The notes beneath the pieces were generated by a model, which saw only the letters and a list, made by a program, of their open reading frames with translations, had not been told where the DNA came from and did no database searches. Both the position numbers and the translations under genes were made by a program. Positions 4,661 to 45,763 of a stretch of DNA of 60,000 nt are shown in pieces (position 1 is the stretch's first letter; the number at the start of each line of letters is the position of its first letter). Where the stretch lies: assembly GCA_051294905.1 (NCBI GenBank), contig CM119371.1:19594001-19654000 (forward strand), given 5' to 3'. The DNA is from Botryllus schlosseri. Lineage: Eukaryota.

Positions 4661-4837
4661 CAGGGGTGGGCAAACTTTTGAGCTCGCGGGCCGCATTCAA
4701 CATCTGAATCCATTCGCGGGCCGCACTATATAAAATTGGGATTATAAACCATAACGTAATATTGATATTTGATTATATAGTGAGGACATGGAAATAATAT
4801 ATGTGCTTATGTAAAACAAGCCAAACATTGCTTCGAT

Positions 4838-5513
4838 AGTAGTTATATAGATCGGTCAACCGGTGGCAGGGGTTCTTATGGGCGGGGTGGTGAGCGGCTG
4901 GAAAACCGGGGGTGGTGAGCGGCTCTTATTTCTTATGGCGGGGGTGGTGAGCGGCTATTGCGTCTTATGGCGGGGGTGGTGAGCGGCTCTTATTTCTTAT
5001 GGCGGGGGTCGTGAGCGGCTGGAAAACCGGGGGTGGTGAGCGGCTCTTTTGTCTTATGGCGGGGGTGGTGAGCGGCTATTGTGTCTTGTGGTCGCACGGT
5101 AACCCTTTTCAGTATAGGGATCGGTCGCAAGCGGCTCTTATTTCTTATGGCGGGGGTCGTGAGCGGCTATTTCGTACTTTCAGGCATCTCTCTCGCGTGG
5201 TGTTGAATAGTCACCAACAATAACCACACAAACGGAAACGCGGCTTGTAAGAGGATTTACGCAGTGCGTGCGACCTATATTTCGAATGACCTGCGCGCTG
5301 AATTGTTACCCGTGCAGCTGTGTGCTACTATCGATTATTACACTATTCCATTCAGTGCGAAATAGTTTGATCGTAAATTATGATATATGATGTCGTAGTT
5401 TAGTCGTGTCAAATGACCGATCGTGTTCTCTTTCCTCGCTATTGATTGCTAGCTGAATAATACTTTCGGCTTATTCGCTGCTTCGTGCCTACAAAATAGT
5501 CTGCTGTTCACAG
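4838..5513 (+). repeat. Maverick left terminal inverted repeat (676 bp)
   Basis: Reverse complement of 21425-22100, same length, with no mismatch noticed by eye. Confidence 0.96.
4876..5168 (+). repeat. G-rich subterminal tandem repeats within the TIR (core GGGGGTGGTGAGCGGCT, about 8-9 units)
   Basis: Visible directly and mirrored at about 21770-22062. Confidence 0.9.
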
Positions 5514-5556
5514 GCGCAACAAGAATCACAAGTATATACATTTACACATTCGTTTA

Positions 5557-6000
5557 TTACTCTGAAATCAAACTCTTCACAAAAACATGTACAATCGTAT
5601 CATTCACTTTTTTATCATCGCCAAAATTATCCAAGTATTCCTCTGTTGAAAACCCTTGAGCTCTTTTTATCAAGAATGCGATAGCATGATCTCCACACAC
5701 ATCTGAAGTTTTACTCTGTAACTGTTTCCCAGTCACTGAAAATTCATCCGGCTCCAGGAATTCGATTATCTGAGGTTTTAGTGGTCCGAAGCCTAGCGAA
5801 TCATGAAAATGAGTATCGTCATCTCTGTATATAGACACCCAGTGAGACCCAGGTAAACTCGACTCATCGTAATTAATGGTGATAGCGAATTTTCCGCTAG
5901 TTGGTTTCTTCGGTAACTGATCTACTGGATAAGTTCCTAGATATAGACTTTGTGTGTCAGGGTGGTTATAGAGAATATCATCGATCTCAGACGTATTCAT
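5557..6000 (-). CDS. Adenain-like (C5-type) cysteine protease
   Basis: Catalytic H/D/Q/C motifs GSHWV, HDSLG and QSKTSDVCG. The start at 6000 overlaps the capsid gene stop (ATGA). Confidence 0.92.
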   Translation of the reverse strand: MNTSEIDDILYNHPDTQSLYLGTYPVDQLPKKPTSGKFAITINYDESSLPGSHWVSIYRDDDTHFHDSLGFGPLKPQIIEFLEPDEFSVTGKQLQSKTSDVCGDHAIAFLIKRAQGFSTEEYLDNFGDDKKVNDTIVHVFVKSLISE

Positions 6001-7268
6001 ATTTCGACGACTTGTCTTTTTTGATTCAGTTGTAGAAGATGTTGAAACTCCTTCAAACATAACAAGGTTACGGAGGTTGGTAAAGGTTTCGATGTAGTCA
6101 AAACCAGATGCACAGTTCCTGTCTTATGAAGTTGATAACATCCCAAACTATTATCAGGTGTCAAATCAAACACAAAAAGAGTGTACCCCTTGACATAATC
6201 TTCGCGAGAAATATTTAAAGGTGCCTCGGATTCCCAGCGACCTGTCTGAGAGAATAGTGTCATATAACCTTCGAGTCCACCGTGTTTACCAAAATCGAAA
6301 TGAAATTCGCGTCCGTTAATTTGTCGCCCGTCCACACTTAACGAAAGATTTTGAACATCAAAGTGTTTAAAGTTGAATGGATTTTTGGTTCGAACACCGT
6401 TAAATGTCGTGGTCTCAACTAAACCAATTACGATCTTCTTTGGCATGGTGCCGCTAACTAACTCTCTATCAATTTTCGACAAACCCGCGGCGAATGTATG
6501 AGTCGACATTTGTAAGCGTATCCAGGGGTACTTGGCAGTATTCTTCTGTAATACAGACTTGTGTGCTAAGCTTACACTTTCAGCGATCTTCATCTGTTTG
6601 ACATACACCTCCATTTCGAGTAAAACAATTTGTACATCTTCCGCGTCGCCAAGCAGACAGAAATTATCTTCGTTACGTGTAAATTTTAATTTCATGTCGA
6701 CATTATCCAACATACATCTAGACTGTTCAAAAAGACCCATTCGAATTTTTCCGATCAACTCTAGCGGAGTGCTGTTTTTTGTAAGGTCTTTTCGTTTAAC
6801 ATATCCAGTATTCGCTACACCAAGAACATCCATAGATCCAGCGACATCTTTATAAAAACCTTGTCCTTGCACAAAACTCTCCGAGGCATCATGTGTATCA
6901 TTCAACAACCGAGAGATATAAGCTTTGTACGCATGACAATTATCCGAATTTGTGATAACCTCATTTGAAATAGTTACATCGATTTGTTTGAAAAGAGAAT
7001 CCAACATGTTATTGACCAGACCCACTTGTGTATCGTTTGCTAAATCAGTTCCATCGCGTTTAGTGAGCTTCAAACGTAATCTCAAGAACGTGTTTTGTAG
7101 ATCCATATATCGATCCGTCCTTGGTAATTGTACTTCCATGACATTCCCTAAACTATGGGGTTTGACGACGACATATTGCGATTCCTCAATACTGGTTTGT
7201 GTGTGGGGTATACTAAATATGTTTAATCCCGAGTTATGACATTCTCTGGAACCCGCGTGCATCAACAT
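5997..7268 (-). CDS. Major capsid protein (double jelly-roll, Polinton PY)
   Basis: 423 aa with Maverick MCP-type motifs: LNIFSIPHTQTSIE, LDSLFKQIDV, NPFNFKHF, GYTLFVFDLTPD. Confidence 0.92.
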   Translation of the reverse strand: MLMHAGSRECHNSGLNIFSIPHTQTSIEESQYVVVKPHSLGNVMEVQLPRTDRYMDLQNTFLRLRLKLTKRDGTDLANDTQVGLVNNMLDSLFKQIDVTISNEVITNSDNCHAYKAYISRLLNDTHDASESFVQGQGFYKDVAGSMDVLGVANTGYVKRKDLTKNSTPLELIGKIRMGLFEQSRCMLDNVDMKLKFTRNEDNFCLLGDAEDVQIVLLEMEVYVKQMKIAESVSLAHKSVLQKNTAKYPWIRLQMSTHTFAAGLSKIDRELVSGTMPKKIVIGLVETTTFNGVRTKNPFNFKHFDVQNLSLSVDGRQINGREFHFDFGKHGGLEGYMTLFSQTGRWESEAPLNISREDYVKGYTLFVFDLTPDNSLGCYQLHKTGTVHLVLTTSKPLPTSVTLLCLKEFQHLLQLNQKRQVVEI

Positions 7269-7273
7269 AGTTC

Positions 7274-7645
7274 TTAGTCGAATATATCCTGCTGTTTACG
7301 ACGACGTTTGGATGAAGTGTTCTTTGACTTTGTTTTTTTCCTTTTTATAGCTTTTGGGGTTAAAATTTTATCAATCACTCGACCGCCAGCTTGTTTACTT
7401 CTCTTGACGACACTAGACTTGATCGAATTACCCCGTAATAGATCTCTCGCTATTTCACCTCCAGTCCGTAACAATTGACCACCAGCATATTTCGCAATAG
7501 GTGTCACTAAACGACCAAGTGATTTAAACAAACTCCCGATACCGGAACCGGCTTGAACTCCACCACTAAAATATCCATAACCATCACCTGTCTGGTTATA
7601 ATGACGATGGACAGAATGATGGTCACACGTGAAAACAACTTTCAT
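7274..7645 (-). CDS. Basic virion core / membrane-active protein with a cupiennin-like amphipathic helix
   Basis: A Gly-rich putative protease site QAGSG is followed by the amphipathic GIGSLFKSLGRLVTPIAK, then a Lys/Arg-rich C-terminus. Confidence 0.7.
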   Translation of the reverse strand: MKVVFTCDHHSVHRHYNQTGDGYGYFSGGVQAGSGIGSLFKSLGRLVTPIAKYAGGQLLRTGGEIARDLLRGNSIKSSVVKRSKQAGGRVIDKILTPKAIKRKKTKSKNTSSKRRRKQQDIFD

Positions 7646-8037
7646 AATCGCTTCCTAATGTTAAATGTAGCTTGCAATGAACGACTTATTATATTTATAG
7701 GTTCCCCAAACTCATCCCTGAGGTAAAGACATACAGAATCTACAACATCTTTTGAAACAGGGAAATAATACGGATTTGTCGCTACCCAATTATGCGTGAC
7801 ATCACTAGTTGTCAGTGGTATAACTCGTAATAAACGCGCTAACGTATCTCCAAGTAAGTGAGGGTGAATAATATCACAATACACAAACAAATATTGACCA
7901 ATCGCCGGTTCGGTTAAAGTGAAATCGATCTCCATGAGGGCTAATTCACAATATCTCGTCGGGATGTTGTTGATGGTGAGTAGTCTGTGTTCAAAATCAA
8001 CACCAAGCATAGAGGTGGTTAACGTCACTATTTTCAT
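7642..8037 (-). CDS. Minor capsid protein (penton) paralog 3, 131 aa
   Basis: Motifs ELALMEI, YLFVYCDII, GDTLARLLRVI, PYYFPV and LRDEFGEPI are shared with the two upstream paralogs. Confidence 0.8.
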   Translation of the reverse strand: MKIVTLTTSMLGVDFEHRLLTINNIPTRYCELALMEIDFTLTEPAIGQYLFVYCDIIHPHLLGDTLARLLRVIPLTTSDVTHNWVATNPYYFPVSKDVVDSVCLYLRDEFGEPINIISRSLQATFNIRKRL

Positions 8038-8705
8038 CGTGCGTGGAGTGTCAATGTGGTCTCTATATCATGTACTAACTGACCGTATTGGTCTCGGATG
8101 GTGATTTTTATATCGCGGATGTGGTTAATCGACACTGGGAAATAAAACGGTTTTTCATATACAACTTCTTGTCTCATACACATCTCGTTATTTACTTGGA
8201 TCACACGAAGCAATTGACTCATGTAATCACCCACCGGATGATGTCGTAGTACATTGATATACACAAAAAGATATCTGAGGTGGGGTTGAGTTGGTTTAGG
8301 TTTGATCGACGTGACATTACATACTGGTGTCGACACTTGATCAACTACACTGAAATAATTCGTGAATATATCCGTGGGGTGGAGTGTGATACGTTTCGAG
8401 TAACGAATTCGGAAAAGTTCATCGTTGATTCTTTCGGTGAAACAGTGTTTGAAACTTTCAGCTAATATTCTTCGCGTCAACTCGAGGTTGTTTGCATAAT
8501 TCCCAAGTGGTGTTAGGTACGCATCTACTATTCGATCTTTCTCATTATGTAGCTCCCAGAGTGCTTGATCGTGATTGATTATAATTCGATCAAGAGATTC
8601 ACTGACAAAACTCATATCCATCAATGCGAGTTCATTACAAATAATTTCGTTCGGTAACACCACTGAGAATTCGCCCTGGGTGCCAGACAACGTGATGTAA
8701 CTCAT
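8034..8705 (-). CDS. Minor capsid protein (penton) paralog 2, 223 aa
   Basis: Motifs ELALMDM, YLFVYINVL, GDYMSQLLRVI, PFYFPV and IRDQYGQLV. Confidence 0.8.
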   Translation of the reverse strand: MSYITLSGTQGEFSVVLPNEIICNELALMDMSFVSESLDRIIINHDQALWELHNEKDRIVDAYLTPLGNYANNLELTRRILAESFKHCFTERINDELFRIRYSKRITLHPTDIFTNYFSVVDQVSTPVCNVTSIKPKPTQPHLRYLFVYINVLRHHPVGDYMSQLLRVIQVNNEMCMRQEVVYEKPFYFPVSINHIRDIKITIRDQYGQLVHDIETTLTLHAR

Positions 8706-9532
8706 ATTGAATCAACAGCTCTACGACGGAAGCGTAGGGTCACTGTCACTGGTGCTTTTCGAAATTTAATGGGGTTGCCAGCGGCATCACGTAGATAAAT
8801 TCGTATTGTTCTAAAATTGTTTCTCGCTAAAGCAAAGAAGTATGGTTTTGGGAATATATTGATTTGGTTTTCATTCGGTTTAGCGGTTACAGTAACCACC
8901 CGTAAAAGTTGTTGCAGCTTGTTACCGTGTGGTCTTGGTTGTATCAGATCGCAATACACATAAACCTTATCAATCCGTTCCAACTTTATCGCGGGTGTAA
9001 ATATAAATTCTACCACTCCGCGGCGACGGGATACAACACGTCTAAATGTTATTGTGTCCAACACAGAACCAAGTGGTATCAGTCCGTAAGGCTCGGGTGA
9101 ATCATGTGTGGTACGGGGTACGTGTCTGGCGCTAGAGTCTGCGGTGTCGGTATTTATGGGTACACCCCGCTTGGGTCTTTTTTTACTCGTGACTAATCTT
9201 CTGAATGTGATTCTAAAGTCTCCGAATCCTTGTAAAATGAAAATGTCCCCCATGTAATATTTCTCGTACGATTCTAACATTTCACCGATGCTGTAATACG
9301 AGCCTTCGGGAATATAATACCGATCGGTGTATCCATTCGCATCGACAAATCCAAAACCGATACTTTTCGCTGTCACTTCAATTCGCGGTTGAAAATCATT
9401 GGGGAAGGTTAGCTCACATAATCCCAGCTCATGGCGACTCATTTCTAATTCTTTGTAAAGTTCCGTTTGAAAATCTGTGCTAGTATTCGGAAATTTATCC
9501 AAACTCGCATTCGAAGGTAGAGTCAACAACAT
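8702..9532 (-). CDS. Minor capsid protein (penton, Polinton PX) paralog 1
   Basis: Starts MLLTLPSNAS at the ATG at 9532. Motifs ELGLCELTFP, YVYCDLI, LLRVV, PYF and LRDAAGNPIKF. Confidence 0.88.
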   Translation of the reverse strand: MLLTLPSNASLDKFPNTSTDFQTELYKELEMSRHELGLCELTFPNDFQPRIEVTAKSIGFGFVDANGYTDRYYIPEGSYYSIGEMLESYEKYYMGDIFILQGFGDFRITFRRLVTSKKRPKRGVPINTDTADSSARHVPRTTHDSPEPYGLIPLGSVLDTITFRRVVSRRRGVVEFIFTPAIKLERIDKVYVYCDLIQPRPHGNKLQQLLRVVTVTAKPNENQINIFPKPYFFALARNNFRTIRIYLRDAAGNPIKFRKAPVTVTLRFRRRAVDSI

Positions 9533-9545
9533 TTTATTGTTTCTT

Positions 9546-9779
9546 TCAACATATACGGTGAGGTGATGGATTCGGTAATAAATACCCAAGTGAAGAAGAC
9601 AGTAGCGTTAAATATATCTCACGATCCACCCCGACAGAAATTTGATATAATGAAAACACGATTACACACACTAACATACAAATCTGTACAATAAACACAA
9701 TCTGGTTTTTCAGACTGTTCGAGACTTGACCCATGCGAGATGAGACGTTATCAGAATCCATAGTTTGGTTGAACAACAT
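9546..9779 (-). CDS. Small two-helix membrane protein
   Basis: Hydrophobic IVFIVQICMLVCVIVFSLY and YLTLLSSSLGYLLPNP segments, tightly packed into the gene block. The true start may be Met 9761. Confidence 0.75.
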   Translation of the reverse strand: MLFNQTMDSDNVSSRMGQVSNSLKNQIVFIVQICMLVCVIVFSLYQISVGVDREIYLTLLSSSLGYLLPNPSPHRIC

Positions 9780-9788
9780 TTTCGGTGT

Positions 9789-10859
9789 CTATTTATACAA
9801 ATCCGAGACCCAAGAATTAAATGTAGACGGATAACCCAACCATTTTACAAGATATTGCGTTTTCTTTCCTTTCCTGCGAGTAGACAGGATTTTTTCGATA
9901 TTGTAAATATTATTATTTTTCGTTATTGGTTGTAACTCTTCACGCTGAAAGCGACCGTCTATAACTTCACCATGGTAGTCTTTCAATTGATAAGTAGGAG
10001 GGTCACCTTTACGACATTGAGATACGAAAAAGATTTCTTCGGTCCAACTCGCCAAGGCACTTTTTACAAAATTACCACGTGATTTCGAAATCCTGACGGG
10101 TGTGCCGATAGTTAGTTTGGGTTTTTTAGGGGTCATGTCGCCGTATAACCTATGGAAAATTTGTTCTTGATTTGAATAATCAACATCCGCTGGAGGACAC
10201 CCTATAGCAACGTGAAAAGTAGTGTTATACCCCTGGCATATCTCGGACAGGACACTGACATAATTCAAAGTCTTATTATGCGTGAAATAACGGTATAACA
10301 CTTGCTTCACAGTACGAATAACACGCTCGCATATCGATGCTTTCAGTTCACTATTTGTATGAAAATGTCGCACATTGTTATCTTTCAAGAAAGTCTGAAA
10401 CGCACGATTGGTAAACTCAGAACCCTGATCACTTTGAATAACATGAGGTATACGATCCTTAAATATTTCCTTGAATCCGCGAATAATACCTTGCGAGGTT
10501 TTGTTTTTGAGTGGATACAGATATAAAAATCGACTGAAACAATCGATCGTCACCAACACATATTTAAAATTGTCGTTTTCTTTTGAAAGATTTTGCATAT
10601 GCATGAGATCGGTTTGATACTGAACACCGAGACCGGATGTAATCACTCTAGGTCTCTTAAATTTCTTTCGGTAGGGAAAATGTTTTGTGTACGCGTCCTT
10701 GCTCGAAAGAAACTCCTTGACTTTGGCTCTATTCCGCCCTCTAGAGAATACGTATGCACCGCGATAACTACCGGGTAGCCCTGGCGTGAAATACTTAGTA
10801 TGGCTCCCATCCGTATCGTCTCGGGGTCTTGGGTGTACGACCGCTTTTCGTCTTGGCAT
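9789..10859 (-). CDS. Retroviral-like (rve) integrase with C-terminal chromodomain
   Basis: DDE triad QTDL / SDQGSEF / SICER. Chromodomain YNIEKIL...YLVKWLGYPSTFNSWV. Confidence 0.96.
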   Translation of the reverse strand: MPRRKAVVHPRPRDDTDGSHTKYFTPGLPGSYRGAYVFSRGRNRAKVKEFLSSKDAYTKHFPYRKKFKRPRVITSGLGVQYQTDLMHMQNLSKENDNFKYVLVTIDCFSRFLYLYPLKNKTSQGIIRGFKEIFKDRIPHVIQSDQGSEFTNRAFQTFLKDNNVRHFHTNSELKASICERVIRTVKQVLYRYFTHNKTLNYVSVLSEICQGYNTTFHVAIGCPPADVDYSNQEQIFHRLYGDMTPKKPKLTIGTPVRISKSRGNFVKSALASWTEEIFFVSQCRKGDPPTYQLKDYHGEVIDGRFQREELQPITKNNNIYNIEKILSTRRKGKKTQYLVKWLGYPSTFNSWVSDLYK

Positions 10860-11190
10860 GCTGAGTCTTTACTTTGCTTCGTTGGCTACTCGGTGATGGT
10901 ATAGGAATCCTTGATGGTTCACCCTTGATCAGGCGTCGCAGTGCGTCCAACTCACTAGCCGAAAATAGATTCCTTTGTTCTGATATATCGATTTTCATCG
11001 GTTGATTCAGTGTGTCGTGTTTTGTTTGATAACGATTTAGTGCGTCGTTATATAAGGCTAATTTTCGTTCTTGGGGTATGTTCATCTGTAATATGTCGCT
11101 CATACATTTGTCGATATCCAAATTCAATTTCTGAACGTCAGCTCCGTTGATCGGGCTCGGATTTATGAGGATTTTTTTAAAAGAAGTCAT
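10795..11190 (-). CDS. Maverick hypothetical protein, 131 aa
   Basis: Co-oriented ORF with an ATGA overlap with the upstream gene; helical N-half and basic tail ending WEPY. Confidence 0.7.
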   Translation of the reverse strand: MTSFKKILINPSPINGADVQKLNLDIDKCMSDILQMNIPQERKLALYNDALNRYQTKHDTLNQPMKIDISEQRNLFSASELDALRRLIKGEPSRIPIPSPSSQRSKVKTQHAKTKSGRTPKTPRRYGWEPY

Positions 11191-11534
11191 TTTTTGAAAA
11201 GATTACCGAGTAAACCAGTGACGACGGGTAGGATGCTTGATAATAGAGTCATAAACATACCCCCATGCTGGTTAACAATACGTTTTTTATGTCGAATGGG
11301 GATGTCTTTCCTGACAAGTCGACGTAAACTACATTTATGAGCTGATAGTCGCTTTCTTTTATACTTTGAAAGAGGGATGTTACCGTTTAAAATGTTCTTT
11401 GTACAATCGCATATACACTCGATCAATTCTTTGCTGGCTCCCGATATAATTTGCTTGCGTATCTCGGGTTTACTTTTATGTAGGAACTCTAGTGTGGGTA
11501 TATGCCGCCGTGTCCGAGCTGGCACCTTCGTCAT
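11187..11534 (-). CDS. Basic core protein with adenovirus pX-like C-terminal amphipathic peptide
   Basis: Arg/Lys-rich body, then QHGG|MFMTLLSSILPVVTGLLGNLFKK (a protease-site-like GG followed by an amphipathic helix). Confidence 0.75.
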   Translation of the reverse strand: MTKVPARTRRHIPTLEFLHKSKPEIRKQIISGASKELIECICDCTKNILNGNIPLSKYKRKRLSAHKCSLRRLVRKDIPIRHKKRIVNQHGGMFMTLLSSILPVVTGLLGNLFKK

Positions 11535-11567
11535 TTTGAGTTTAAAGTCGTCTCTGTGCTTGGCTAT

Positions 11568-12179
11568 TTATACCAGCGGGCTATAAACCACCATGGTTTC
11601 ACCAGGAAATATATTGGTCATAACTCGTCGATTTTCAGGCGCTTCTTGCGTGACATCAAGAAATAAATAACCATGAGGTCGTCTAGCAGCGTCACGATAA
11701 GCCTCTGTTAAAAATCTAGAGTTTGGGTACATTTGTCGACCAAGAAAACTGATCTGCTGTTGGTCGCGCGGATTCTTGAAAATCACCATATACGAACTCG
11801 AGAGACTCAAGTCACGTGCTCCTTTACCCTTGTGGTACAGGTTCTGTGTGATATAGCAAATTGTCTTTGCCGAATGATGAGAAAATCTTGTAAAGTAGTC
11901 TGCAATTTTCGCTGTCTCAGTCATGAAATCATCCACTATAATCAAGGTGTCTTCAGAGCAAACCTTCAACTCTTCTAAAATATCTAGACCCGCGTGGAAT
12001 TCTACATTATGCATCGTCTTGAAAACCTCCTGATAATTATTGTAACAATATACGACCCTGGATACACTAGGTTTAATCATTGATGTCGCATGCCTAATCA
12101 GCTTTGCAACAAAAGTAGTCTTCCCACTTCTTGAAGGACCACTCACAATACACGCGAATGGGTGGATCAATTCCATCAT
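11568..12179 (-). CDS. DNA packaging ATPase (A32-like, FtsK-HerA superfamily)
   Basis: Walker A GPSRSGKTT, Walker B IIVDD, plus FTRFSHH, ITQN and KNPRD. Confidence 0.95.
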   Translation of the reverse strand: MMELIHPFACIVSGPSRSGKTTFVAKLIRHATSMIKPSVSRVVYCYNNYQEVFKTMHNVEFHAGLDILEELKVCSEDTLIIVDDFMTETAKIADYFTRFSHHSAKTICYITQNLYHKGKGARDLSLSSSYMVIFKNPRDQQQISFLGRQMYPNSRFLTEAYRDAARRPHGYLFLDVTQEAPENRRVMTNIFPGETMVVYSPLV

Positions 12180-12458
12180 TTGTTGTTTATTGAAAACTCG
12201 ATAAAGTGCATTTGTTTATATATCAACAAGGTTGGGAATATCCACTGTTGTAGTCATCTTGTTCTAGTGGAATATATAATCCCAGTAGAGTCCGATTTAA
12301 CAATTTTCCACGGGTTATGAAATCTTCATCTGTCCCTCATCGTCAGTGGAAGTTGTAGTGTTACGAACGCTTTATTCAGGTCATCAAGCAGCTGATCCCA
12401 AGCTGCAAAATAATAAATCACATAAGAGGATTCATAATAAGAGAGGATTCATAGCGCT

Positions 12459-12686
12459 TTAAAATCTAACAGTGTTTCTATAACAACTATAGTATTCACC
12501 CTTGGAACACTCTTTCAAATCTTTATGTTGTCTCGACACGCGTTGTTCGTATAATTCATGCGATATCTCTCGATTCAAATACAGCTCCACGAAGTGTACA
12601 TGATCGCGGCGTTGTACAAGTGTCTTTTCGTGTAACCGAGTCAGGTCTGGTTGTTCCAGAACAGATATTATGTAATCACTAGCCAT
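12459..12686 (-). CDS. Hypothetical protein, short paralog of the 12784..13332 ORF
   Basis: YIISVLEQPDLTRLHEKTL resembles YIESVMSELDLNSLHKETL. The ATG is directly preceded by the acceptor-like TTGTTTTACAG. Confidence 0.55.
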   Translation of the reverse strand: MASDYIISVLEQPDLTRLHEKTLVQRRDHVHFVELYLNREISHELYEQRVSRQHKDLKECSKGEYYSCYRNTVRF

Positions 12687-12783
12687 CTGTAAAACAAGAC
12701 ACAGATTTCAGGAAATATTATTACTAAAACGTTTTAGTTACAAGTTGACATTTCGAAAACACCCACAGATTGTAAACAAAGTT

Positions 12784-13332
12784 TCACCTAAAACTATCAG
12801 TGTTCACCACAGGATTATGTTCACAATGACCAAGGGAATCATGTTTGCAAAAATCATCGGTTGTAGCATCGCTACTTTCAGAGTCAGAACGAGTTCGTTT
12901 CAAACTGTTTGCAACTCGATGTTGATCAAGGAAAAATTGGAATTTTCGATGTCGCTTGCGGGTTCTCAAGTAGGCTTGTCTCTCTTCGTGACCGAAAAGC
13001 GGTATCCACGAACAATTTCTTCCCAGGACCACATGATTTGTAAGCTTTGCTCTGTTGAATAGGATGTGGTTATCACTCGGCATCTTTCGATCAGGAAATT
13101 GTAGTTGAAGTAGCGCTTCTATGCAGACACTTCGGTCACGGGTCCATTTCTCGTCTAGTTCCTGACGGCGCGCCTTGGATCGATCGGGTATCGTGCGGTC
13201 TTGTGAGTTGTCGTCGGTACCGTGAATCGAGAGCTGTGTTAATTCCTGCTCCAGTTCAAGCGTCTCTTTGTGCAAACTATTTAAATCCAATTCTGACATT
13301 ACTGACTCAATATATGAAATAGCGTTATCCAT
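12784..13332 (-). CDS. Hypothetical protein, 182 aa
   Basis: Open frame with an ATG at 13332 directly after the acceptor-like TTTGTTTTCCAG. The upstream in-frame extension is low-complexity and intron-like. Confidence 0.65.
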   Translation of the reverse strand: MDNAISYIESVMSELDLNSLHKETLELEQELTQLSIHGTDDNSQDRTIPDRSKARRQELDEKWTRDRSVCIEALLQLQFPDRKMPSDNHILFNRAKLTNHVVLGRNCSWIPLFGHEERQAYLRTRKRHRKFQFFLDQHRVANSLKRTRSDSESSDATTDDFCKHDSLGHCEHNPVVNTDSFR

Positions 13333-13429
13333 CTGGAAAACAAATGACACATCAACACATAAAAAATACAAATAAATCATAATAATAGCAGACACACAGA
13401 TAAAATACAATAGCACACAAAATATACAA

Positions 13430-16400
13430 TTACACATTCAATGGCAGGGTTGATACACCATCCTCGAGCACTCGGCGTTTGGCATAGAAATAGGAAAATG
13501 TTTTACGCTGTTGTTTGTATGTATAGACACCCCTATCTCTGCACCGAAACCCCTTGTTCACTCCCCCGACAGATTGCCTAGATGTCAAGACACCCAGGAA
13601 AGTTTCGAAATCGACTGGGTTGGATTTCTGGAGGCCTTTGGAAGCTAATTTTTTCTTTGGTCCATCACAAAAGTAATTTTTGGATTGGAGACCGCAGAAA
13701 GATGTACCACCCTCGTACTCCACTTTCATCAAACCCGGTTGACGAAGGTAATAGGCATACGTGTCTTTGCAACACTGTCGCGAACGGTCAAAAGAAACCG
13801 GATCAGCCAAAAACTCAGCTCGATGCTCGTCACAAAAATAGCGTGGAAACCAGTTCTCGTATTCCACATAAAATTCATCTCTTTTCTCGGGGATAAGGAT
13901 ATCGTCGAATGAGGCTGAATGCGAAAGATAGAGGGAGTCTGTGTCCATCATTAATAGCATGAAGCACTCGTCGCGGAAATATTTACACAAGCAGTCATAA
14001 AAAAACGAGAGCATCTTGAGCTTAGCATTGTTATAAACCCAGAACCCCACTTGAATACAGTTACCCCACTTGATCGTTTTAGGTCGCTTCGTTACTTCAA
14101 ATAGATCAGCGTTCAATTCATCATATTTCACAAAAAAGCGATCCTCAACATTGACATCCAATTCACTTTTATCACAGTAGGTGGTTCGTTTGAATTTACG
14201 TGGATTCATCAAGACCCGACCATAGCTGCTGTTTCCGGCTAATTTTTGTGTCAGGGCAATAATCTCTAGGTTAGGGTCACGGTCCCCAGCGCGTCGACAG
14301 TCTGAGACATTTTTCGCAAAGTTGTCAAAACAGGTCTTTTTTGTGAATTCGACCGCCTCATGGATTTTTGATATAATCAATCCGTGCTCTACATACCACT
14401 TGATCAAGTCAGAGGTCAACAAGATTTTCTTGCCCCAGTATGAAGCAACTAACATGCGCGTGGGTTTGGTGAGTAATTTACGATCAATGGCAAACTGTTT
14501 CATGTGTCCTGACAAATGCTCGCGAGACACCATCGTATTTTTGAATATCGGACATAGTTCAACAAACTTCCTTTGCAAATGTTTTGGCGTAAAAATATCG
14601 ACTGATAAACACCCAAAGAATGTACCGGTCATTACCATCTCCATCAATTTATGCGCGGTGACAGACTTGGTTCTATTCAATTGCGGTTGGATGCCATTAA
14701 GATATCGCACAATATCAGGATTTTCCTGTTTCTCCGTGCGCCAGTCACATTCCCATTTACATACGACTTGATAATTGAGGCTTTTGTAATAATCATGAAC
14801 ACGTTTAGTTCGTTCTCGACGTTCCAAGTCATCACAGCCAAATCTGCACTGATGTGCATGAAAATGACACCCAAGAAAAGACAAGATTACCCCCTGACCA
14901 GCTGAATTACGATAGAACCCATCGGCAGGATAATTACGAGCTCCTACGCGTATTTCAGGTCCATTAAAAGCATGGTGGACATGTACATTGTGAATGTGAG
15001 AATACCAGTTTAACCATTGAGCTGCTGTCCCCCCCCATTTCGGTGCGGTCTTCACCGGTTTGAATTTAGTACACTCAGCATCGAGTGGTTGCCAATGTAC
15101 CGGGAAACCAGTTGGACTAGGTTCACTCAAAGCAAAAAGGTATAACGAATTGCTGTCCAGCCCTGTTACATGTTGGGTAATCTGAGCGTTTTCCTTGTAA
15201 AAAAATTCTTTGATTCGAGTTTCACCCTGTTTTTGATATCGATGGAAAATGACTGACGGTCCACCCACTAAATTGTCTCTGAATAGCGAAACCAGATCCT
15301 GGTGTTTATCATTGAACAAGGTAAAATCACGTGGGATGCTATTGAAAAGATGCCTCGATACAACCCCGGGTAGGGAGACAGCTTCTTTGAATATATCCAC
15401 ACTGAACTGACTTTTGAAAGATTGAAATTGTTTTTCTAACCCCTCAATGAAGTAGTGAGTATCGATTGCGTTGTACCATTTGAGATAATCACGTAAAGTT
15501 GTCATTTTGTTATCATTCCAAACCTTCAAACAGTTTTCATATTCAGCTGTGGAGATATTACGACCCTTTAGCGAGCTGTAAAAGTCGCTGTGGCTAGGAA
15601 GACTCGTATAATCCAGCTTTTCTAAACTAGTCAGAAACTCATACGGAAAATGACCCTTAGCGGCGCTACATTTGAAGGCCTTCAAATAAGCATCGTACGA
15701 GAACCCGGGTGCCAAGTAATTCACAATATCCAAAAATTTAAGTCTGTTAGTTGTCAACGAGAGGAAGTTGTTACCTCGTTTCAATACATTCAGATTTTCA
15801 TCAACGAGTAAACCCATCAAGTACTCTTTGAGACAGTTCAAGTCATACCGACCACCATTGAACGACAAAACAGGGATTTGTTTTAAATATCGCATAAACT
15901 CCTCTTGTAAACGTTCAAGAGGTATTTTTCTTTCGGAAGGATCGAGCGCTCTCATTTCGGTAATTTTAGTTTCGAGCATGTCCAAGTAGTGTTGATATTC
16001 CGTCTGTAGCAACCTAAATGACTCACTTTGAATATCATGAAAATGATCAACCATTTCCGCACACAAGTCATTTGGGTCACCGTTCGAGACAATTACATAC
16101 GGTTCCAAGAACCCTTCCACATTAGAAGAGATGCTAACCGAAATGGGAATATGTTTACACTCCCATGAAGTTTTGGAGGAATCTGGAATATCACACTTTT
16201 CAAACATGCTCTCTATGTCGAACGCGATACGGTATTTGAAATAACGAAGCTGGTGAGGAACAAACACCCCTTCTAAATCAAGCTTTTCAAAGATGTTCAG
16301 AGGAGGTGTATACACGCCACCTGGAAACACTTCAACGACACCCGTTGTACATTTGTGTCTGGTCAATTCATACTGTTCGTTAAATAATCGTAGACAAACA

Positions 16401-17023
16401 TCACATTTATAGGTCTCTATATACCGCCTCATGTCAGTAATGAGACAGAAGTGTGCATGTTCTAAATGTAAGTACACAGGTTTCCCTTCAAACGTACTAC
16501 GTCGGAGAGCGCTAGCTTTACCCTCGGTCTTGGTGTATACAAATATAGCGACATTAAACAAATCCTCGATATCATCCAACATGTCAAGAGTCACACCGGA
16601 TTCTACATTTACACCATATGCTGAAGTGAATTGTTGGGCCATTGCTTTGGTGTCTTTACCTATCGAGTGACCAATACAGCGAAAAGCGCAGAGATTGTCA
16701 TTGTACCGATTCTTATTTTTCCGACGTGTAAATGGCATGATCGATTTCGACTGCGCAAGCCATGTCGGTAGTTTAATACCAACACAACCAATCAACACAC
16801 CCTCGGTAGGATATTCATATAACTGCGGGTTGATCAGACAGATCGATTGGGTATCTGGGAAAACATCCGACCGCTTACGGTTCAAGTCGTGAATATTATA
16901 CACACGGTTACTGTTCACTACATACGATTTCACCGCTTGCCAGTTCTGAGATGTCATTTGTTGTTTTTGGTTGTCGATCTCTGGCGGTGCGTGTTCTTTA
17001 TGATTCCAAAGGTGTCGAGTCAT
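13430..17023 (-). CDS. Protein-primed family B DNA polymerase (pPolB) with a Vsr-like nuclease insertion
   Basis: Exonuclease motifs FDIES, FNGGRYD, YNAID. Polymerase motifs DSNSLY, KLAGNSSYG, MDTDS. Inserted ADGF...GCHFH...WECDW. ATG at 17023 follows TTTTTACAG. Confidence 0.97.
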   Translation of the reverse strand: MTRHLWNHKEHAPPEIDNQKQQMTSQNWQAVKSYVVNSNRVYNIHDLNRKRSDVFPDTQSICLINPQLYEYPTEGVLIGCVGIKLPTWLAQSKSIMPFTRRKNKNRYNDNLCAFRCIGHSIGKDTKAMAQQFTSAYGVNVESGVTLDMLDDIEDLFNVAIFVYTKTEGKASALRRSTFEGKPVYLHLEHAHFCLITDMRRYIETYKCDVCLRLFNEQYELTRHKCTTGVVEVFPGGVYTPPLNIFEKLDLEGVFVPHQLRYFKYRIAFDIESMFEKCDIPDSSKTSWECKHIPISVSISSNVEGFLEPYVIVSNGDPNDLCAEMVDHFHDIQSESFRLLQTEYQHYLDMLETKITEMRALDPSERKIPLERLQEEFMRYLKQIPVLSFNGGRYDLNCLKEYLMGLLVDENLNVLKRGNNFLSLTTNRLKFLDIVNYLAPGFSYDAYLKAFKCSAAKGHFPYEFLTSLEKLDYTSLPSHSDFYSSLKGRNISTAEYENCLKVWNDNKMTTLRDYLKWYNAIDTHYFIEGLEKQFQSFKSQFSVDIFKEAVSLPGVVSRHLFNSIPRDFTLFNDKHQDLVSLFRDNLVGGPSVIFHRYQKQGETRIKEFFYKENAQITQHVTGLDSNSLYLFALSEPSPTGFPVHWQPLDAECTKFKPVKTAPKWGGTAAQWLNWYSHIHNVHVHHAFNGPEIRVGARNYPADGFYRNSAGQGVILSFLGCHFHAHQCRFGCDDLERRERTKRVHDYYKSLNYQVVCKWECDWRTEKQENPDIVRYLNGIQPQLNRTKSVTAHKLMEMVMTGTFFGCLSVDIFTPKHLQRKFVELCPIFKNTMVSREHLSGHMKQFAIDRKLLTKPTRMLVASYWGKKILLTSDLIKWYVEHGLIISKIHEAVEFTKKTCFDNFAKNVSDCRRAGDRDPNLEIIALTQKLAGNSSYGRVLMNPRKFKRTTYCDKSELDVNVEDRFFVKYDELNADLFEVTKRPKTIKWGNCIQVGFWVYNNAKLKMLSFFYDCLCKYFRDECFMLLMMDTDSLYLSHSASFDDILIPEKRDEFYVEYENWFPRYFCDEHRAEFLADPVSFDRSRQCCKDTYAYYLRQPGLMKVEYEGGTSFCGLQSKNYFCDGPKKKLASKGLQKSNPVDFETFLGVLTSRQSVGGVNKGFRCRDRGVYTYKQQRKTFSYFYAKRRVLEDGVSTLPLNV

Positions 17024-17400
17024 CTGTAAAAATTGATACCGCGTGGTTACATTCAACACTTGGGAATATTAAACTAGTGTTACTTACAATGCGGTTTCTT
17101 TTTCGGTATCTTCCTTGGATCTTTATACTAAACAAGTAACACGTCAAACTATGTCACTAACATAGTAATATAACAGATAACTCACCAGTAGACTTGTGTA
17201 TCCCACTTAATCATTGAGTTCGCTTTGTCTGTTCAACAACAAAATCATTACATCATGCTTAATAGTTCTACACAGTAATAACTCACCGTTTCAATTCTTT
17301 AATCCCACGCTCGTTTTGTCTGGTGGATAAATAAATAACAAATTATATTCATAAATCAAAGTATTCGCATCGAATAACTTACCTATTAAACCCTTAATCC
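17024..17400 (-). other. Putative spliced non-coding leader of pPolB (4 introns of 58-64 nt)
   Basis: GTRAGT donors at 17382, 17286, 17185 and 17087; AG acceptors at 17320, 17229, 17128 and 17024. Confidence 0.65.
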
Positions 17401-17726
17401 TGTGTCAATGTAATCTCTATATGTAAACTATTCAAATCTAATGACATAACCGACTTGAGATATGAAATAATGTTATCCACCTGGAAAACAAACGATACAT
17501 TAACAAACAATAAAAAAAATCATATTAAACAAACAAAATGTACAAATATATCCAAATAACACCACACGCAATACATACAAGTACATCTCAATAAAATTCA
17601 ATGACGGGATCATTTTCTTGGATCATTATGAGAATGATTGAGATCATGAAAAGACACATCGGCGTCTTAGTTTTTCGACGTATAAATAAATGATTGTGCA
17701 AGTCCTGGTGGTATTTCGATATCAGC

Positions 17727-18215
17727 TCAACCAATCAGTAAACGACTCGTAGGGTATACATAAAACTGGACATTAGTCAGACACACTGGTAGTGACTTTG
17801 TATCTGCTCGAGAGTTTTGTAACAAATCAAGTGCGGTTTCCAGGCGAATAGATTCAACAAATTCATCAAACTCAGATAGTGTTGAAATTAGCGCTGGTGT
17901 TTCTAATACACTATCGACGTTCGCCGACGCATGAAAATAACGAAATCGCAGAGTCTCAGTGTGATATAAAATAAAGGCATGTGCGTAGTTCACTTTAAAG
18001 GTATGTGACTCAGAGAAAAATATAGCTTGTATATCACGGAAAACATCCGCTAGCTCCCGACCGATGACTCGAATATTATACACATGACCAGTCTTTTTCA
18101 CTACATACGATTTTATCGCTTGCCAGTTCTGATTTACAACTTCTTGACGTTCGTCCCCAATCTCTGGTGGTGCATTCGGTTCTTCGCGAACACGATTCCG
18201 TCTGCGTCGACTCAT
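17727..18215 (-). CDS. Stand-alone pPolB N-terminal-domain protein (putative terminal protein), 162 aa
   Basis: Both ends align with the pPolB N-terminus (APPEI...QNWQAxKSYVV...VYNI...DVF and CLxN.Q.Y.YPT..LIG). It holds about 79 aa that are absent from pPolB. Confidence 0.75.
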   Translation of the reverse strand: MSRRRRNRVREEPNAPPEIGDERQEVVNQNWQAIKSYVVKKTGHVYNIRVIGRELADVFRDIQAIFFSESHTFKVNYAHAFILYHTETLRFRYFHASANVDSVLETPALISTLSEFDEFVESIRLETALDLLQNSRADTKSLPVCLTNVQFYVYPTSRLLIG

Positions 18216-18600
18216 CTGTAAAATTAATAACACGCGGTCAAATTCAGCACTTGGGGAACATTAAACTAGTCTTACTTACAATCTAGTTTCTTTGCCGGTG
18301 TCTTCGATTCTTTATGCTTAATAAAACAAGCAACACATCAATCTATGTCCACTAACGTTGTGTTATAGCGGATAACTTACCAGTAGACTCGTGCGTTCAA
18401 CTTGAGTTTGCTCTGTCTGTCAACAACATAGAGAATTACATCATGTTCACTAGTTCTAAACAGTAATAACTCACCTATGCAATTCTTTACTTCAATTCTG
18501 ACGCTTGTTTTGTCTGTAGGATAAACGAATAACATATTATATTCATAAATCAAAGTAATCGTGCCGAATAACTTACTAATTAACTCCTTATCCGGCAATC
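18216..18600 (-). other. Paralogous spliced non-coding leader of the 162-aa ORF
   Basis: GTRAGT donors at 18576, 18474, 18380 and 18279; acceptors at 18514, 18417, 18317 and 18216. Confidence 0.65.
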
Positions 18601-18817
18601 TGCGATCGAATATACCCAACCAGTAAGCCACGTTGTTCACCGCTCGACACCCGGAGAGAAAGACCTAAACCGCTGATTCGAGATTACAAGAGCACCAGCG
18701 CCGCTAGTGGTTGTGCTTTCAGAAGCTATTGTTTATTTATGGCTCTAATGTAAAATCTGAAACGGAAAACAGAAATTGAGAATAGACACTCACAACAATG
18801 AAAATCATTCAGCCCAA

Positions 18818-19696
18818 TCACAAATTATACTTCAATTTCGTTCTAATTTCTAGAAGTCGATGCAAGTACTCATCGGTTGCGGTATTTAATTCAGGCTGAA
18901 TCTCATCAAGACTCCAACGCTGACCCTTGACAGTAAGCAATCGTTTGATGTCAGCCATGAGCTTTGTGACAGTCAAATTTTTTTTCTCCGTCAACGAATC
19001 AACATAACATAGTATTGAACCTAAATGCGGTTTAACAACGTCAATAGTCTGGAGGTAGGTGACCATCTTGTCAACTGTGTATTGACATAACTTTTCTTCC
19101 TGCTTCTTTTTTCCCTTCACGTCGTCGCGAAAATCATCGTCACTCGCACTTTTAGATTTCACAGGTTTCTTACCAACCTTCTGTCTGGGTTCGGTACGAT
19201 TCAAATTTTTCGATTTCCCATTGCGAAGCTGTTTAGCCGGTGGTATGCCCGCCGTTGTCGATGTGGTTCTTTTTCGAGTCGGCTTGCCGGTTGATACAGA
19301 TTTAGGAGTATCAGTCGCCGATAGCAACCCCGCGGGGCGCGGTATCGTCATCCCAGAAGTCGACGGTTTCTCGGGATTCGGTAATTCGTTGCTAACGGCT
19401 GTCTCGTCGGTCGGTACACACGGTATCGTCACCAAGTTCGTGAGATCGTTAATCGCGCTTTCTCTAGCTAGTTGACCCGACTTCAACCACGCCTGGCGCG
19501 CTATATCTGTATAGTTTGACTGCATTTCGATCGTTGCCGTAAGGTCGCGTTCTGCGGATTCAACTCTTAAATCCGGTGTCATCAGATCACCAGGATTAAT
19601 CACTTCAAAGATATCCGCGTTCTCTTCAAATTGCGATTCGAATGCATTTGGTTCATAACCAAATTTGTCAAGATTATCTATCTGAACCTCGGCCAT
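18818..19696 (-). CDS. Hypothetical protein, 292 aa (acidic N-terminus, basic disordered middle, helical C-terminus)
   Basis: Long ATG-initiated ORF with a TATA-like TATAAATAG about 85 nt upstream. No family recognised. Confidence 0.8.
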   Translation of the reverse strand: MAEVQIDNLDKFGYEPNAFESQFEENADIFEVINPGDLMTPDLRVESAERDLTATIEMQSNYTDIARQAWLKSGQLARESAINDLTNLVTIPCVPTDETAVSNELPNPEKPSTSGMTIPRPAGLLSATDTPKSVSTGKPTRKRTTSTTAGIPPAKQLRNGKSKNLNRTEPRQKVGKKPVKSKSASDDDFRDDVKGKKKQEEKLCQYTVDKMVTYLQTIDVVKPHLGSILCYVDSLTEKKNLTVTKLMADIKRLLTVKGQRWSLDEIQPELNTATDEYLHRLLEIRTKLKYNL

Positions 19697-19777
19697 TGTA
19701 TAATAATTAATCTAACTGCTCCAACCAACGTTTATGTCTGCGACAGCGAAGTATAACAATCGACTCGTGGGTGTTGG

Positions 19778-19787
19778 CTATTTATAG
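19778..19787 (-). promoter_or_regulatory. TATA-like element TATAAATAG (also at 9789-9798 and 11564-11573)
   Basis: The same 9-mer lies upstream of three minus-strand gene starts. Confidence 0.5.
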
Positions 19788-20159
19788 ATTTAATTTGATA
19801 GTAGCACGCGGTTGGATGGAAAATAATTCGGCGTGCAGGTCATTCGAAATATAGGTCGCACGCACACTGCGTAATCCTCAGAACCGATCGCGTTTCCGAC
19901 TTTCAGAACCGGACGTATTTAGTGTGTCACAGATCAAAACGTCGCTACAGATATCTGATTTTTCAAAATCGCACAGCGCACTGCGCTTTAGTGAATTTCC
20001 TGTTTAGCGCAACGGCCGATTTTTATTGCGCCACACATGTCAAACGCACCCGCCAACATCTGTTTTTTCGAAATCTGAGCGGTGTATTTCACCATTTTAA
20101 CACATTGTGGTGTCATTCTCATGGTTTACTTTTTCAGTTGATAGTTACATATACTCGTT

Positions 20160-20513
20160 ATGGCAACTAGCGCGATTATTGAGAATTATCTTCTGTACTA
20201 TCATAACTTGACAACCCCCACATTGAGCGAAACGGAAAAATTCATTCACGGAGTACTAGATTTCTATGTACATGGAGAAAACGTGAGCCGTGTTCGAAAG
20301 TGCGATTTTACCACATTAGTTAACTCGATTCGATCATACGGCATCGACTGGAATGGGGTTTTTAGTGTCATAAGCATTGCGGCGATGAAAAGTGACATAC
20401 GTACCCTAGCGGTGTACAGAGATTTAGCAACAGACATCTTGAATACTCACTACAGTACATTGATAAGTGACTGGGTAAGAAGAAAATTCATTCGTGTCGT
20501 TTGTCGCTTGTGA
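20160..20513 (+). CDS. Putative divergent Bcl-2-like protein, 117 aa
   Basis: All-helical. FTTLVNSIRSYGIDWNGVFSV resembles BH1 (DGxNWGRIV) and LISDWVRR resembles BH2. Similarity judged by eye only. Confidence 0.45.
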   Translation: MATSAIIENYLLYYHNLTTPTLSETEKFIHGVLDFYVHGENVSRVRKCDFTTLVNSIRSYGIDWNGVFSVISIAAMKSDIRTLAVYRDLATDILNTHYSTLISDWVRRKFIRVVCRL

Positions 20514-20675
20514 ACGGTATCATTTCTTACAGAACTCCTGTAAAGTTTATTTCAATCCAAGTCTATTCACGCGGGTCATCAGGATTATACAAAGACTGTT
20601 AACTCACTCAATACCACCCACCTAATTCTATAAATATCGACGGATTTGTTGATGACTCTCACTTTACCAAACGAT

Positions 20676-21287
20676 ATGGCATCGAACAGCGTCAGCAGTA
20701 TGCAAGTCGGAGCAGTTTCAAATTTTCACGTCGGTGTCAAATTCGTCTCATCACCCAAAAGAGGTGGCGTTAGTCAATATCTGAAAGGTATATTCATCGA
20801 CGGTAATAAGGAAGAGATATCTTTCACGTGTTTCAATCGTGAATTGTTCGGGGTCATTGAGAAAGCATTCTCCAAACGAAAAAAACTCATGGTCAAATCC
20901 GGTTGGGTCCAAATTGACAAGTTTACTGGAAAACCTGCTGTATTACTGGGACGGGCTTCGTCAGTAACTCTACATGGAAAATCGAGACATACGACTGAAG
21001 AATACCCATTATTGACCTGTGAATCGGTATACGGAAATAAAGATGAATACGTATCGATCGCCGCTACTTGTGTTTCTCGAGAGGAGAAGATGGTCAATTC
21101 TGGTGCCGGAAAGGAGTTGAAATTATACAGTTTTACATTAAAAGACGATACCGGAGAGGTGGTTTTGGACCAATGGAACAAAGCCTCGCTCGTACCCGGG
21201 AAGAAATACCAACTCACTCGTGTTAAAAACTGTGTCGGCAGCTTGAAAATCGATTCGTTAACTAGACTTGTTGAATTGAAAGAATAG
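20676..21287 (+). CDS. Tandem OB-fold ssDNA-binding protein (RPA/SSB-like)
   Basis: FTLKDDTGEVVLDQW...LVPGKKYQLTRVK matches the OB-fold LxDxTGxIxxxxW pattern. A similar N-terminal unit reads IFIDGNKEEISFTCF. Confidence 0.7.
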   Translation: MASNSVSSMQVGAVSNFHVGVKFVSSPKRGGVSQYLKGIFIDGNKEEISFTCFNRELFGVIEKAFSKRKKLMVKSGWVQIDKFTGKPAVLLGRASSVTLHGKSRHTTEEYPLLTCESVYGNKDEYVSIAATCVSREEKMVNSGAGKELKLYSFTLKDDTGEVVLDQWNKASLVPGKKYQLTRVKNCVGSLKIDSLTRLVELKE

Positions 21288-21424
21288 TTTGCATATTTCT
21301 ATACCACAATACAATATTTCATTTCACGTAAAATGTATGACCTATGTGTTTCGATAACTGGGTTAGTGCAGTGTTGTTCTACTGATCGAGGTGTGAAAAT
21401 TGCGCTATCGCGGTGAAGTCGCGA

Positions 21425-22100
21425 CTGTGAACAGCAGACTATTTTGTAGGCACGAAGCAGCGAATAAGCCGAAAGTATTATTCAGCTAGCAATCAATAGC
21501 GAGGAAAGAGAACACGATCGGTCATTTGACACGACTAAACTACGACATCATATATCATAATTTACGATCAAACTATTTCGCACTGAATGGAATAGTGTAA
21601 TAATCGATAGTAGCACACAGCTGCACGGGTAACAATTCAGCGCGCAGGTCATTCGAAATATAGGTCGCACGCACTGCGTAAATCCTCTTACAAGCCGCGT
21701 TTCCGTTTGTGTGGTTATTGTTGGTGACTATTCAACACCACGCGAGAGAGATGCCTGAAAGTACGAAATAGCCGCTCACGACCCCCGCCATAAGAAATAA
21801 GAGCCGCTTGCGACCGATCCCTATACTGAAAAGGGTTACCGTGCGACCACAAGACACAATAGCCGCTCACCACCCCCGCCATAAGACAAAAGAGCCGCTC
21901 ACCACCCCCGGTTTTCCAGCCGCTCACGACCCCCGCCATAAGAAATAAGAGCCGCTCACCACCCCCGCCATAAGACGCAATAGCCGCTCACCACCCCCGC
22001 CATAAGAAATAAGAGCCGCTCACCACCCCCGGTTTTCCAGCCGCTCACCACCCCGCCCATAAGAACCCCTGCCACCGGTTGACCGATCTATATAACTACT
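21425..22100 (-). repeat. Maverick right terminal inverted repeat (676 bp)
   Basis: Reverse complement of 4838-5513. Confidence 0.96.
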
Positions 22101-45719: not shown

Positions 45720-45763
45720 AATTTATGTAAATTTTGATTGTCTGTATATTAGTTCCGTGCCTT

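Follow-up and report, generated by a model that had tools for sequence, protein, structure and literature searches.

Paralogous, probably cis-spliced 5' leaders on the split polymerase gene of a Maverick/Polinton element in Botryllus schlosseri

Annotations usually show Maverick/Polinton elements as compact, virus-like groups of genes without introns, and to our knowledge their transcription is almost unstudied. Leaders assembled by splicing are familiar from adenovirus, which has a tripartite leader and puts spliced leaders on its E2B pTP and polymerase mRNAs, and introns in the 5' untranslated regions (5'-UTRs) of cellular genes are known together with intron-mediated enhancement. Here, 60,000 nt of the ascidian Botryllus schlosseri were analyzed (assembly GCA_051294905.1, contig CM119371.1, forward-strand positions 19,594,001 to 19,654,000; the whole stretch is called the window and is numbered from its first letter), in which a Maverick/Polinton element carries two paralogous leaders of ~380 nt each on its minus strand, one in front of an N-terminally shortened gene for a protein-primed DNA polymerase (pPolB) and one in front of a short open reading frame (ORF B). 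We consider it probable that these are cis-spliced, essentially non-coding 5' leaders that serve the shortened pPolB and a terminal-protein-like ORF B.

The adenovirus system resembles this locus in that multi-exon, non-coding leaders stand on the terminal-protein and protein-primed polymerase genes of a related virus lineage. Adenovirus leaders, however, are single-copy, common to several ORFs, driven from one promoter and interrupted by introns of kilobases, whereas here the introns measure ~60 nt and the likeness is only partial, because each of the two genes has its own paralogous leader. The analogy to the tripartite leader had been drawn in an earlier analysis made from the letters alone (hereafter the sequence-only reading); its multi-exon non-coding leader on viral ORFs holds, but one shared leader from one promoter does not. 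Cellular 5'-UTR introns are comparable as short GT-AG introns confined to the leader of an otherwise intronless coding sequence (CDS); they differ from the present case, in which four introns and three micro-exons are packed into 380 nt of a mobile, virus-like element and were duplicated together with a gene fragment. In the ascidian Ciona intestinalis, the available portion of PMC1488885 describes spliced-leader (SL) trans-splicing at polypyrimidine-CAG acceptors directly at the ATG and states that it is confined to acceptors without an upstream partner donor. The Botryllus element lies in an ascidian host as well, has acceptors of the same build and contains two other genes that take a host leader; unlike the Ciona sites, the acceptors of the two leaders are paired with donors, two of them were seen cis-spliced, and the host leader has ~24 nt as against 16 nt in Ciona. 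Finally, according to the available portion of PMC11161782, a terminal-protein domain forms the N-terminus of Polinton polymerases and a vOTU domain comes next; the same polymerase stands behind the leader analyzed here, and ORF B matches its N-terminal part. That paper makes no mention of introns, splicing or a leader, whereas here the N-terminal part forms a separate gene and each gene has a leader of its own. In line with the sequence-only reading, which could recall no such structure for Mavericks, a full-text search turned up no account of spliced leaders on Maverick polymerases in the literature covered, which included the available portions of PMC11161782, PMC8502044, PMC10748475 and PMC12166617 and was without Kapitonov and Jurka (2006) and Pritham et al. 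(2007).

Anatomy, conservation and origin of the leaders

Each leader consists of the 3' part of a first exon, four introns and three purine-rich micro-exons of 33-43 nt (Table 1). All eight donors read GTAAGT or GTGAGT and all eight acceptors end in AG, which is the pattern of U2-type GT-AG introns and is kept in the 44 family units described below. The final acceptor, TTTTACAG, lies directly at the start codon in both leaders. Donors, acceptors, intron lengths and the last acceptor abutting the ATG had all been proposed in the sequence-only reading, and recomputation of every coordinate found them correct. Copies A and B share 75.5% identity over 506 nt, and all eight splice signals are retained in each. 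The splice-signal pattern of the leaders exceeds chance: of 15 GTRAGT motifs on the minus strand of the element, eight fall inside the two leaders, i.e., in 762 nt of 17.3 kb, and the four motifs per leader compare with ~0.5 in dinucleotide shuffles, among which four were reached in 1/2000. Intron lengths fit the range of the host, where the gaps in actin genes, as estimated from match coordinates, are ~57-105 nt. Within the leader, exon 2 plus intron 2 shows weak similarity to exon 3 plus intron 3 (z 4.1), which hints that the leader may have grown by internal tandem duplication. The four introns resemble each other only weakly (z 2.3-3.7); an origin from introner-like, mobile introns was rejected on account of this weak mutual similarity, no genome-wide search with single introns having been made.

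The family was searched in the 495-Mb B. schlosseri assembly itself, the only eukaryotic genome covered. A search with the leader gave 158 candidate copies, 40 of which were scored and were 78-100% identical. Two alignments were then built: blastn matches of at least 380 nt from 30 loci gave 40 units, 32 of them distinct after removal of identical ones, and the addition of 30 loci from a PolB protein search (368 candidates, 104 scored) gave 73 units, 44 of them distinct, with donor 1 outside coverage in six of the 44. Among the 32 units, donor 3 is intact in all 32 and donors 1, 2 and 4 in 31 each (donor 4 was lost once by deletion); acceptor 1 is intact in 30 and acceptors 2, 3 and 4 in all 32, as is the ATG. 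Mean pairwise identity was 0.964 in the 32 splice-signal columns vs 0.813 in all 373 non-coding columns, a value that none of 20,000 random sets of 32 columns reached; with 44 units, the splice columns stood at 0.923 vs 0.783 for the others, and 1/20000 random sets was as high. The check on relatives proposed with the sequence-only reading thus found splice columns better kept than the remaining non-coding columns. Moreover, donor 3 alternates between GTGAGT and GTAAGT, acceptor 3 is preserved across an indel of 5-6 nt, and no intron-less DNA copy was present among the 44 distinct units. A search for relatives among viral contigs gave 14 pattern matches, none of which was confirmed.

A more distant subfamily extends this picture. 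Three loci whose PolB is ~60-62% identical to that of the window have a leader with three introns of 73-74, 71-74 and 69 nt, donors GTAAGT, GTGAGT/GTAAGT and GTAAGT, exons of 43-46 and 36-38 nt, and a last acceptor TTACAG directly at the ATG, which places a TAA immediately before the ATG once the leader is spliced. In blastn comparisons with the window's leaders, only matches of 16-49 nt were found, located around the splice sites and the start codon, and the design of the leader has therefore outlived its sequence. We take this persistence as the strongest argument for a function apart from the RNA.

The leaders are essentially non-coding. Exon lengths vary by non-triplets between types (sets of 33/39/40, 32-67 and 33-41 nt), exon 3 for instance measuring 36 nt in one type and 43 nt in another, a difference of 7 nt. 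When the 32 units were spliced in silico (exons 2-4 preceded by 14 nt from exon 1), an in-frame stop was found upstream of the ATG in 29, in 18 of these just one codon before it; the remaining three lack both an in-frame stop and an in-frame upstream ATG. Half of the units (16/32) lack any upstream ATG, and an in-frame upstream ATG occurs in only four, namely the window's copy A and three close relatives. In copy A this ATG (17196-17194, exon 3) lies 23 codons upstream of the PolB ATG, in frame and without an intervening stop, whereas copy B has a TAG one codon ahead of its ATG at 18215. Since the in-frame ATG is present in 4/32 units only, an N-terminal PolB extension is possible in the sub-lineage of copy A and is no family feature; this sub-lineage could make a slightly longer polymerase. 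The statement in the sequence-only reading that exons differ by non-triplet indels and contain stops therefore holds for the indels and for the TAG of copy B, while in copy A stops lie only further upstream. Its proposals of a multi-exon 5' leader and of splice signals under selection in the absence of selection on coding are in accordance with the spliced family units, in which the signals are kept while exon length and frame drift.

The presence of two leaders can be traced to the polymerase gene. The ORFs behind the 32 units are of three kinds: unsplit PolB, 162-aa ORFs ending in ...LLIG, and PolBs without an internal N-terminal piece. Unsplit PolBs (loci L024 and L028) have a single leader, and split elements show a leader with the 162-aa ORF followed by a leader with the shortened PolB. 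ORF B agrees with the N-terminus of the unsplit PolB of L024 at 139 of 160 aligned residues, and in the alignment of the window's PolB to the same protein there is a gap of ~77 residues, a piece that ORF B retains. On the basis of the ORF kinds and these alignments, the two leaders go back to a tandem duplication of the leader together with the 5' end of PolB, followed by reciprocal loss. The leader itself is older than the split and was copied along with the PolB 5' end. ORF B is a candidate for a stand-alone terminal-protein-like gene.

Cis-splicing and trans-splicing in the element

A search of sequencing runs listed none as a source of RNA from this stretch. The contig sets X1 and X5, together with unassembled reads of the bulk RNA runs X13 (~6% read) and X17 (~13% read), were mapped on positions 5521-21417; the run type of X5 is unrecorded, and X1 is RNA by guess only. 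One X5 contig (depth 3.33) contains the joints 17023>17088, skipping 64 nt, and 17127>17186, skipping 58 nt, both with CT..AC at their borders on the forward strand. These joints match precisely the excision of introns 4 and 3 from copy A, and the former is the junction 17087>17023 that had been predicted from the sequence. The joint 12402>12500, which corresponds to a 97-nt GT..AG intron, is common to one X5 contig and 66 raw reads of the RNA run X17, and X5 therefore contains spliced RNA. An additional argument, namely that X5 holds no unspliced contig over the introns, was dropped, since the bin must be filled by contigs other than the spliced one, which is short.

Two small genes of the same element, with start codons at 12686 and 13332, receive a ~24-nt host spliced leader directly at the ATG (reads in Table 1). 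Their acceptors at 12688 and 13334 are the only other sites of the element at which polypyrimidine-CAG is followed directly by ATG, and neither has a GTRAGT upstream. The 30-letter consensus of the foreign 5' sequence is absent from window and genome, whereas for its first 22 letters the genome has 426 occurrences vs 0 for a control; the remaining letters presumably represent the end of a template-switch oligo. Because these two ATG-abutting acceptors take the host spliced leader, the design of TTTTACAG directly before ATG is not specific to the two leaders; trans-splicing by the host had not been known to the sequence-only reading. In nearly all units, on the other hand, each acceptor of the leaders is preceded at 57-69 nt by a GTRAGT, so that these acceptors are paired with donors where 12688 and 13334 are unpaired, and by the rule given in the available portion of PMC1488885 cis-splicing of the leaders is therefore expected.

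Some further observations concern the trans-spliced genes and the host leader. The small genes at 12330-13334 sit downstream of PolB on the minus strand, and appreciable depth in the two bulk RNA runs is confined to the stretch of the element at 11.9-13.5 kb; these reads may come from other family members or hitch-hiking elements. The 22-letter spliced-leader word has one copy in the window (46378-46399, minus strand). In nine copies inspected (including L037-L044), the downstream sequence differs from copy to copy, GT comes next in only four, and most have a hairpin-like CTGGACC...GGTC motif 55-70 nt downstream; the copies do not look like a uniform SL RNA gene family. The Ciona 16-mer followed by GT is not enriched in the genome (55 matches vs 37 for the control), and its recurring variants belong to an unrelated dispersed repeat (L033, L035 and L036, on contig C1), which has a 16-mer two mismatches from the Ciona leader, then GT and a conserved stretch of 80 nt. 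Mimicry of the host spliced leader by exon 1 was rejected as unsupported, the two having no more than a vague AT-rich likeness.

Competing explanations and possible role of the leaders

In the mechanism that we propose, each pre-mRNA would begin somewhere upstream of the first donor, the four short host-type GT-AG introns would be removed, and the three micro-exons would be joined, the last one onto the ATG. The upstream donors would occupy the ATG-abutting acceptor, leading to cis-splicing, so that the mRNA would keep its own 5' end and take no host spliced leader. Furthermore, four splicing events could provide splicing-dependent export and expression of otherwise intronless viral ORFs.

Several observations weigh against this proposal. 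The RNA support is thin: the joints in the leaders come from the single X5 contig, of unrecorded run type, and concern the last two introns of copy A. For the first two introns of that copy and for every intron of copy B no RNA support was obtained, and their removal is predicted. X13 and X17 have zero depth over 14001-17710 and no more than ~0.4 over 17711-18770; neither run shows a joint in the leaders, and they neither support nor refute leader splicing. X1 reaches a depth of 88.8 over the bin with leader B and lists no joint there; an unspliced form, either DNA or pre-mRNA, must therefore be abundant at leader B. A YTRAY branch motif at the usual distance is present in one of the four copy A introns. 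Intron interiors (0.816), exons (0.793) and the first 124 nt of the CDS (0.792) are alike in conservation, and the kinship and youth of many copies inflate conservation generally, although the comparison of column classes was made within one alignment. The transcription start of both leaders is unmapped. Upstream regions fall into three types that have only the last 14-60 nt before donor 1 in common, and TATA-like motifs lie at differing distances (a strong one ~125 nt upstream in type C, ~20 nt before the first donor in the three-intron subfamily); a conserved TATA box at a fixed distance was therefore rejected. Acceptor-like sites lie close to 17472 and 18757. The transcripts may have a promoter of their own, may take the host spliced leader at an acceptor before exon 1, or may be spliced from leader B to leader A.

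Among the alternatives, one holds that the acceptors at 17024 and 18216 serve mainly for trans-splicing of the host spliced leader, that everything upstream is a discarded outron and that the GT-AG pairs are spliced occasionally in read-through or polycistronic precursors. That all four ATG-abutting acceptors have the motif in common, that two of them demonstrably take foreign 5' sequence and that neither leader has a mapped promoter speaks for it. We nevertheless regard it as unlikely. In the X5 contig, exons 3 and 4 are joined in cis to each other and to the ATG; almost all of the 44 units keep four strong donors and the distant subfamily keeps three, which would be needless in a discarded outron; and paired acceptors are cis-spliced by the rule stated in the available portion of PMC1488885, the trans-spliced sites 12688 and 13334 being those without an upstream GTRAGT. 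Less probable still, although compatible with two cis-spliced leaders, is a single alternative-splicing unit in which transcription starts at a promoter of copy B and B donors can be spliced to A acceptors, skipping ORF B, so that a single promoter would give rise to either the terminal-protein-like or the polymerase mRNA, as in adenovirus E2B. Copy A may lack the ancestral promoter, as the homology starts only ~14-60 nt before donor 1, and another X5 contig runs uninterrupted over 17495-18042, from the end of ORF B towards leader A. Against such a unit, the four runs list no joint leading from 18xxx into 17xxx, and copy A keeps its own donor 1 as well as a well-conserved upstream region with TATA-like motifs. 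A joint from one leader to any other gene was likewise absent from the four runs, the coverage of which is too low for exclusion.

If the micro-exons were coding, they would add N-terminal extensions to PolB and ORF B; the exon 3 ATG followed by 23 open codons in four of the 32 units speaks for this. The in-frame leader stops in 29 units, one codon before the ATG in 18, the absence of an in-frame ATG from the other three, the 7-nt difference in exon 3 between types and the TAA directly before the ATG in the three-intron subfamily make this very improbable. The least probable explanation in our view is that the signals are a neutral relic or a product of chance, retained through the youth of the copies. 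It draws on the fact that four copies are 100% identical and many >90%, and on intron interiors being as conserved as exons; it is at odds with the enrichment over shuffles, with the better preservation of the splice columns, with paralogues of 75% identity that retain all signals, with the survival of the design in a subfamily that can no longer be aligned and with the existence of a spliced contig. Cis-spliced, non-coding leaders on pPolB and ORF B thus account for these data better than the explanations set out above.

With regard to a possible role, the pairing of the leader acceptors with donors suggests that the leader may keep the mRNAs of the replication genes off the trans-splicing route. 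Extending this, we put forward tentatively, and with clearly less confidence than cis-splicing itself, a switch within one Maverick: small genes with unpaired acceptors would take the spliced leader, while replication genes, whose acceptors of the same build are shielded by a conserved leader of three to four introns, would escape trans-splicing, retain a cap-proximal sequence of their own and be expressed solely from their own regulated start. If such a switch were true, the element could so little do without the leader that all of it was duplicated at the split of the polymerase gene, and an interplay with trans-splicing would raise the interest of the locus. Splicing of the leaders would mean that at least one animal lineage of Mavericks needs the splicing machinery of its host to express the polymerase, an unusual trait in elements of this kind, and would add a parallel to the adenovirus terminal-protein and polymerase mRNAs, also made by leader splicing. 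The leader would moreover offer a concrete handle on how a DNA virus-like element copes with a trans-splicing host. For annotation, gene finders blind to introns would misplace the promoters and 5' ends of such genes.

Further features of the element and the window

Table 1. Positions of the two leaders, the genes behind them, the trans-splice sites and the element ends in the window
Feature	Position	Strand	Remarks
Leader copy A	17024..17400	-	exon 1 3' end 17383; precedes pPolB ATG 17023
Copy A introns	17382-17320 (63 nt), 17286-17229 (58), 17185-17128 (58), 17087-17024 (64)	-	
Copy A micro-exons	17319-17287 (33 nt), 17228-17186 (43), 17127-17088 (40)	-	
Leader copy B	18216..18600	-	exon 1 3' end 18577; precedes ORF B ATG 18215
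Copy B introns	18576-18514 (63 nt), 18474-18417 (58), 18380-18317 (64), 18279-18216 (64)	-	
Copy B micro-exons	18513-18475 (39 nt), 18416-18381 (36), 18316-18280 (37)	-	
pPolB gene, N-terminally shortened	13430..17023	-	PF03175; alignment to unsplit form
ORF B, 162 aa	17727..18215	-	equals N-terminal part of unsplit family PolB; no Pfam match
AG acceptor at ATG 13332	13333..13334	-	joined to foreign 5' sequence, 15 raw reads X13
AG acceptor at ATG 12686	12687..12688	-	same foreign sequence, 184 reads X17, 28 reads X13
Cis intron, 97 nt, gene with ATG 12686	12499-12403	-	joint reads
Maverick/Polinton element	4837..22100	-	17,264 bp; inverted repeats, target duplication, pPolB, integrase
Target-site duplication TTCGAT, 6 bp	4831-4836 and 22101-22106		flanks read directly
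Left terminal inverted repeat, 684 nt	4837..5520	.	pairs with 21418-22100
Right terminal inverted repeat	21418..22100	.	inverted-repeat search and end reading

The assignment of the element to the Maverick/Polinton family is based on its ends and its genes. The raw repeat arms, 4833-5520 and 21418-22105, include 4-5 outer bases of the duplicated target, which were trimmed by reading the ends; the element then has the termini AG...CT and TTCGAT at either flank, i.e., the long repeats and the 6-bp target duplication typical of the family. In the frame 13430-17068, PF03175 (protein-primed polymerase) scored 31.5 bits at a Pfam cut-off of 25.8, and at 9789-10868 an rve integrase (60.1 bits) with a chromodomain was recognized, which together give the polymerase and retroviral-type integrase of a Maverick/Polinton. 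As regards packaging ATPase, protease and jelly-roll capsid genes, which are further marks of the family, the frame 11568-12215 had weak AAA-type and RNA_helicase matches only, and the other ORFs of the element had no Pfam match to sequence profiles, no structure search having been made. Most genes of the element lie on the minus strand and are packed tightly, the only sizeable non-coding gaps being 12215-12784, 17068-17727 and 18260-18818, the last two of which contain the leaders. Scanned against Rfam at E<=0.1, the element gave no matches along its entire length.

Within the terminal repeats, 4873-5182 and 21847-22065 contain G-rich direct repeats (families D1 and D2) at a spacing of 25-32 nt, which may be protein-binding sites at the element ends. 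Elsewhere in the window, a 135-nt tandem repeat is located at 41720-42124, and long open frames at 1-4195 (plus strand) and 40644-45722 (minus strand) lie in stretches of higher G+C content (0.48-0.51), which are probably other mobile elements.

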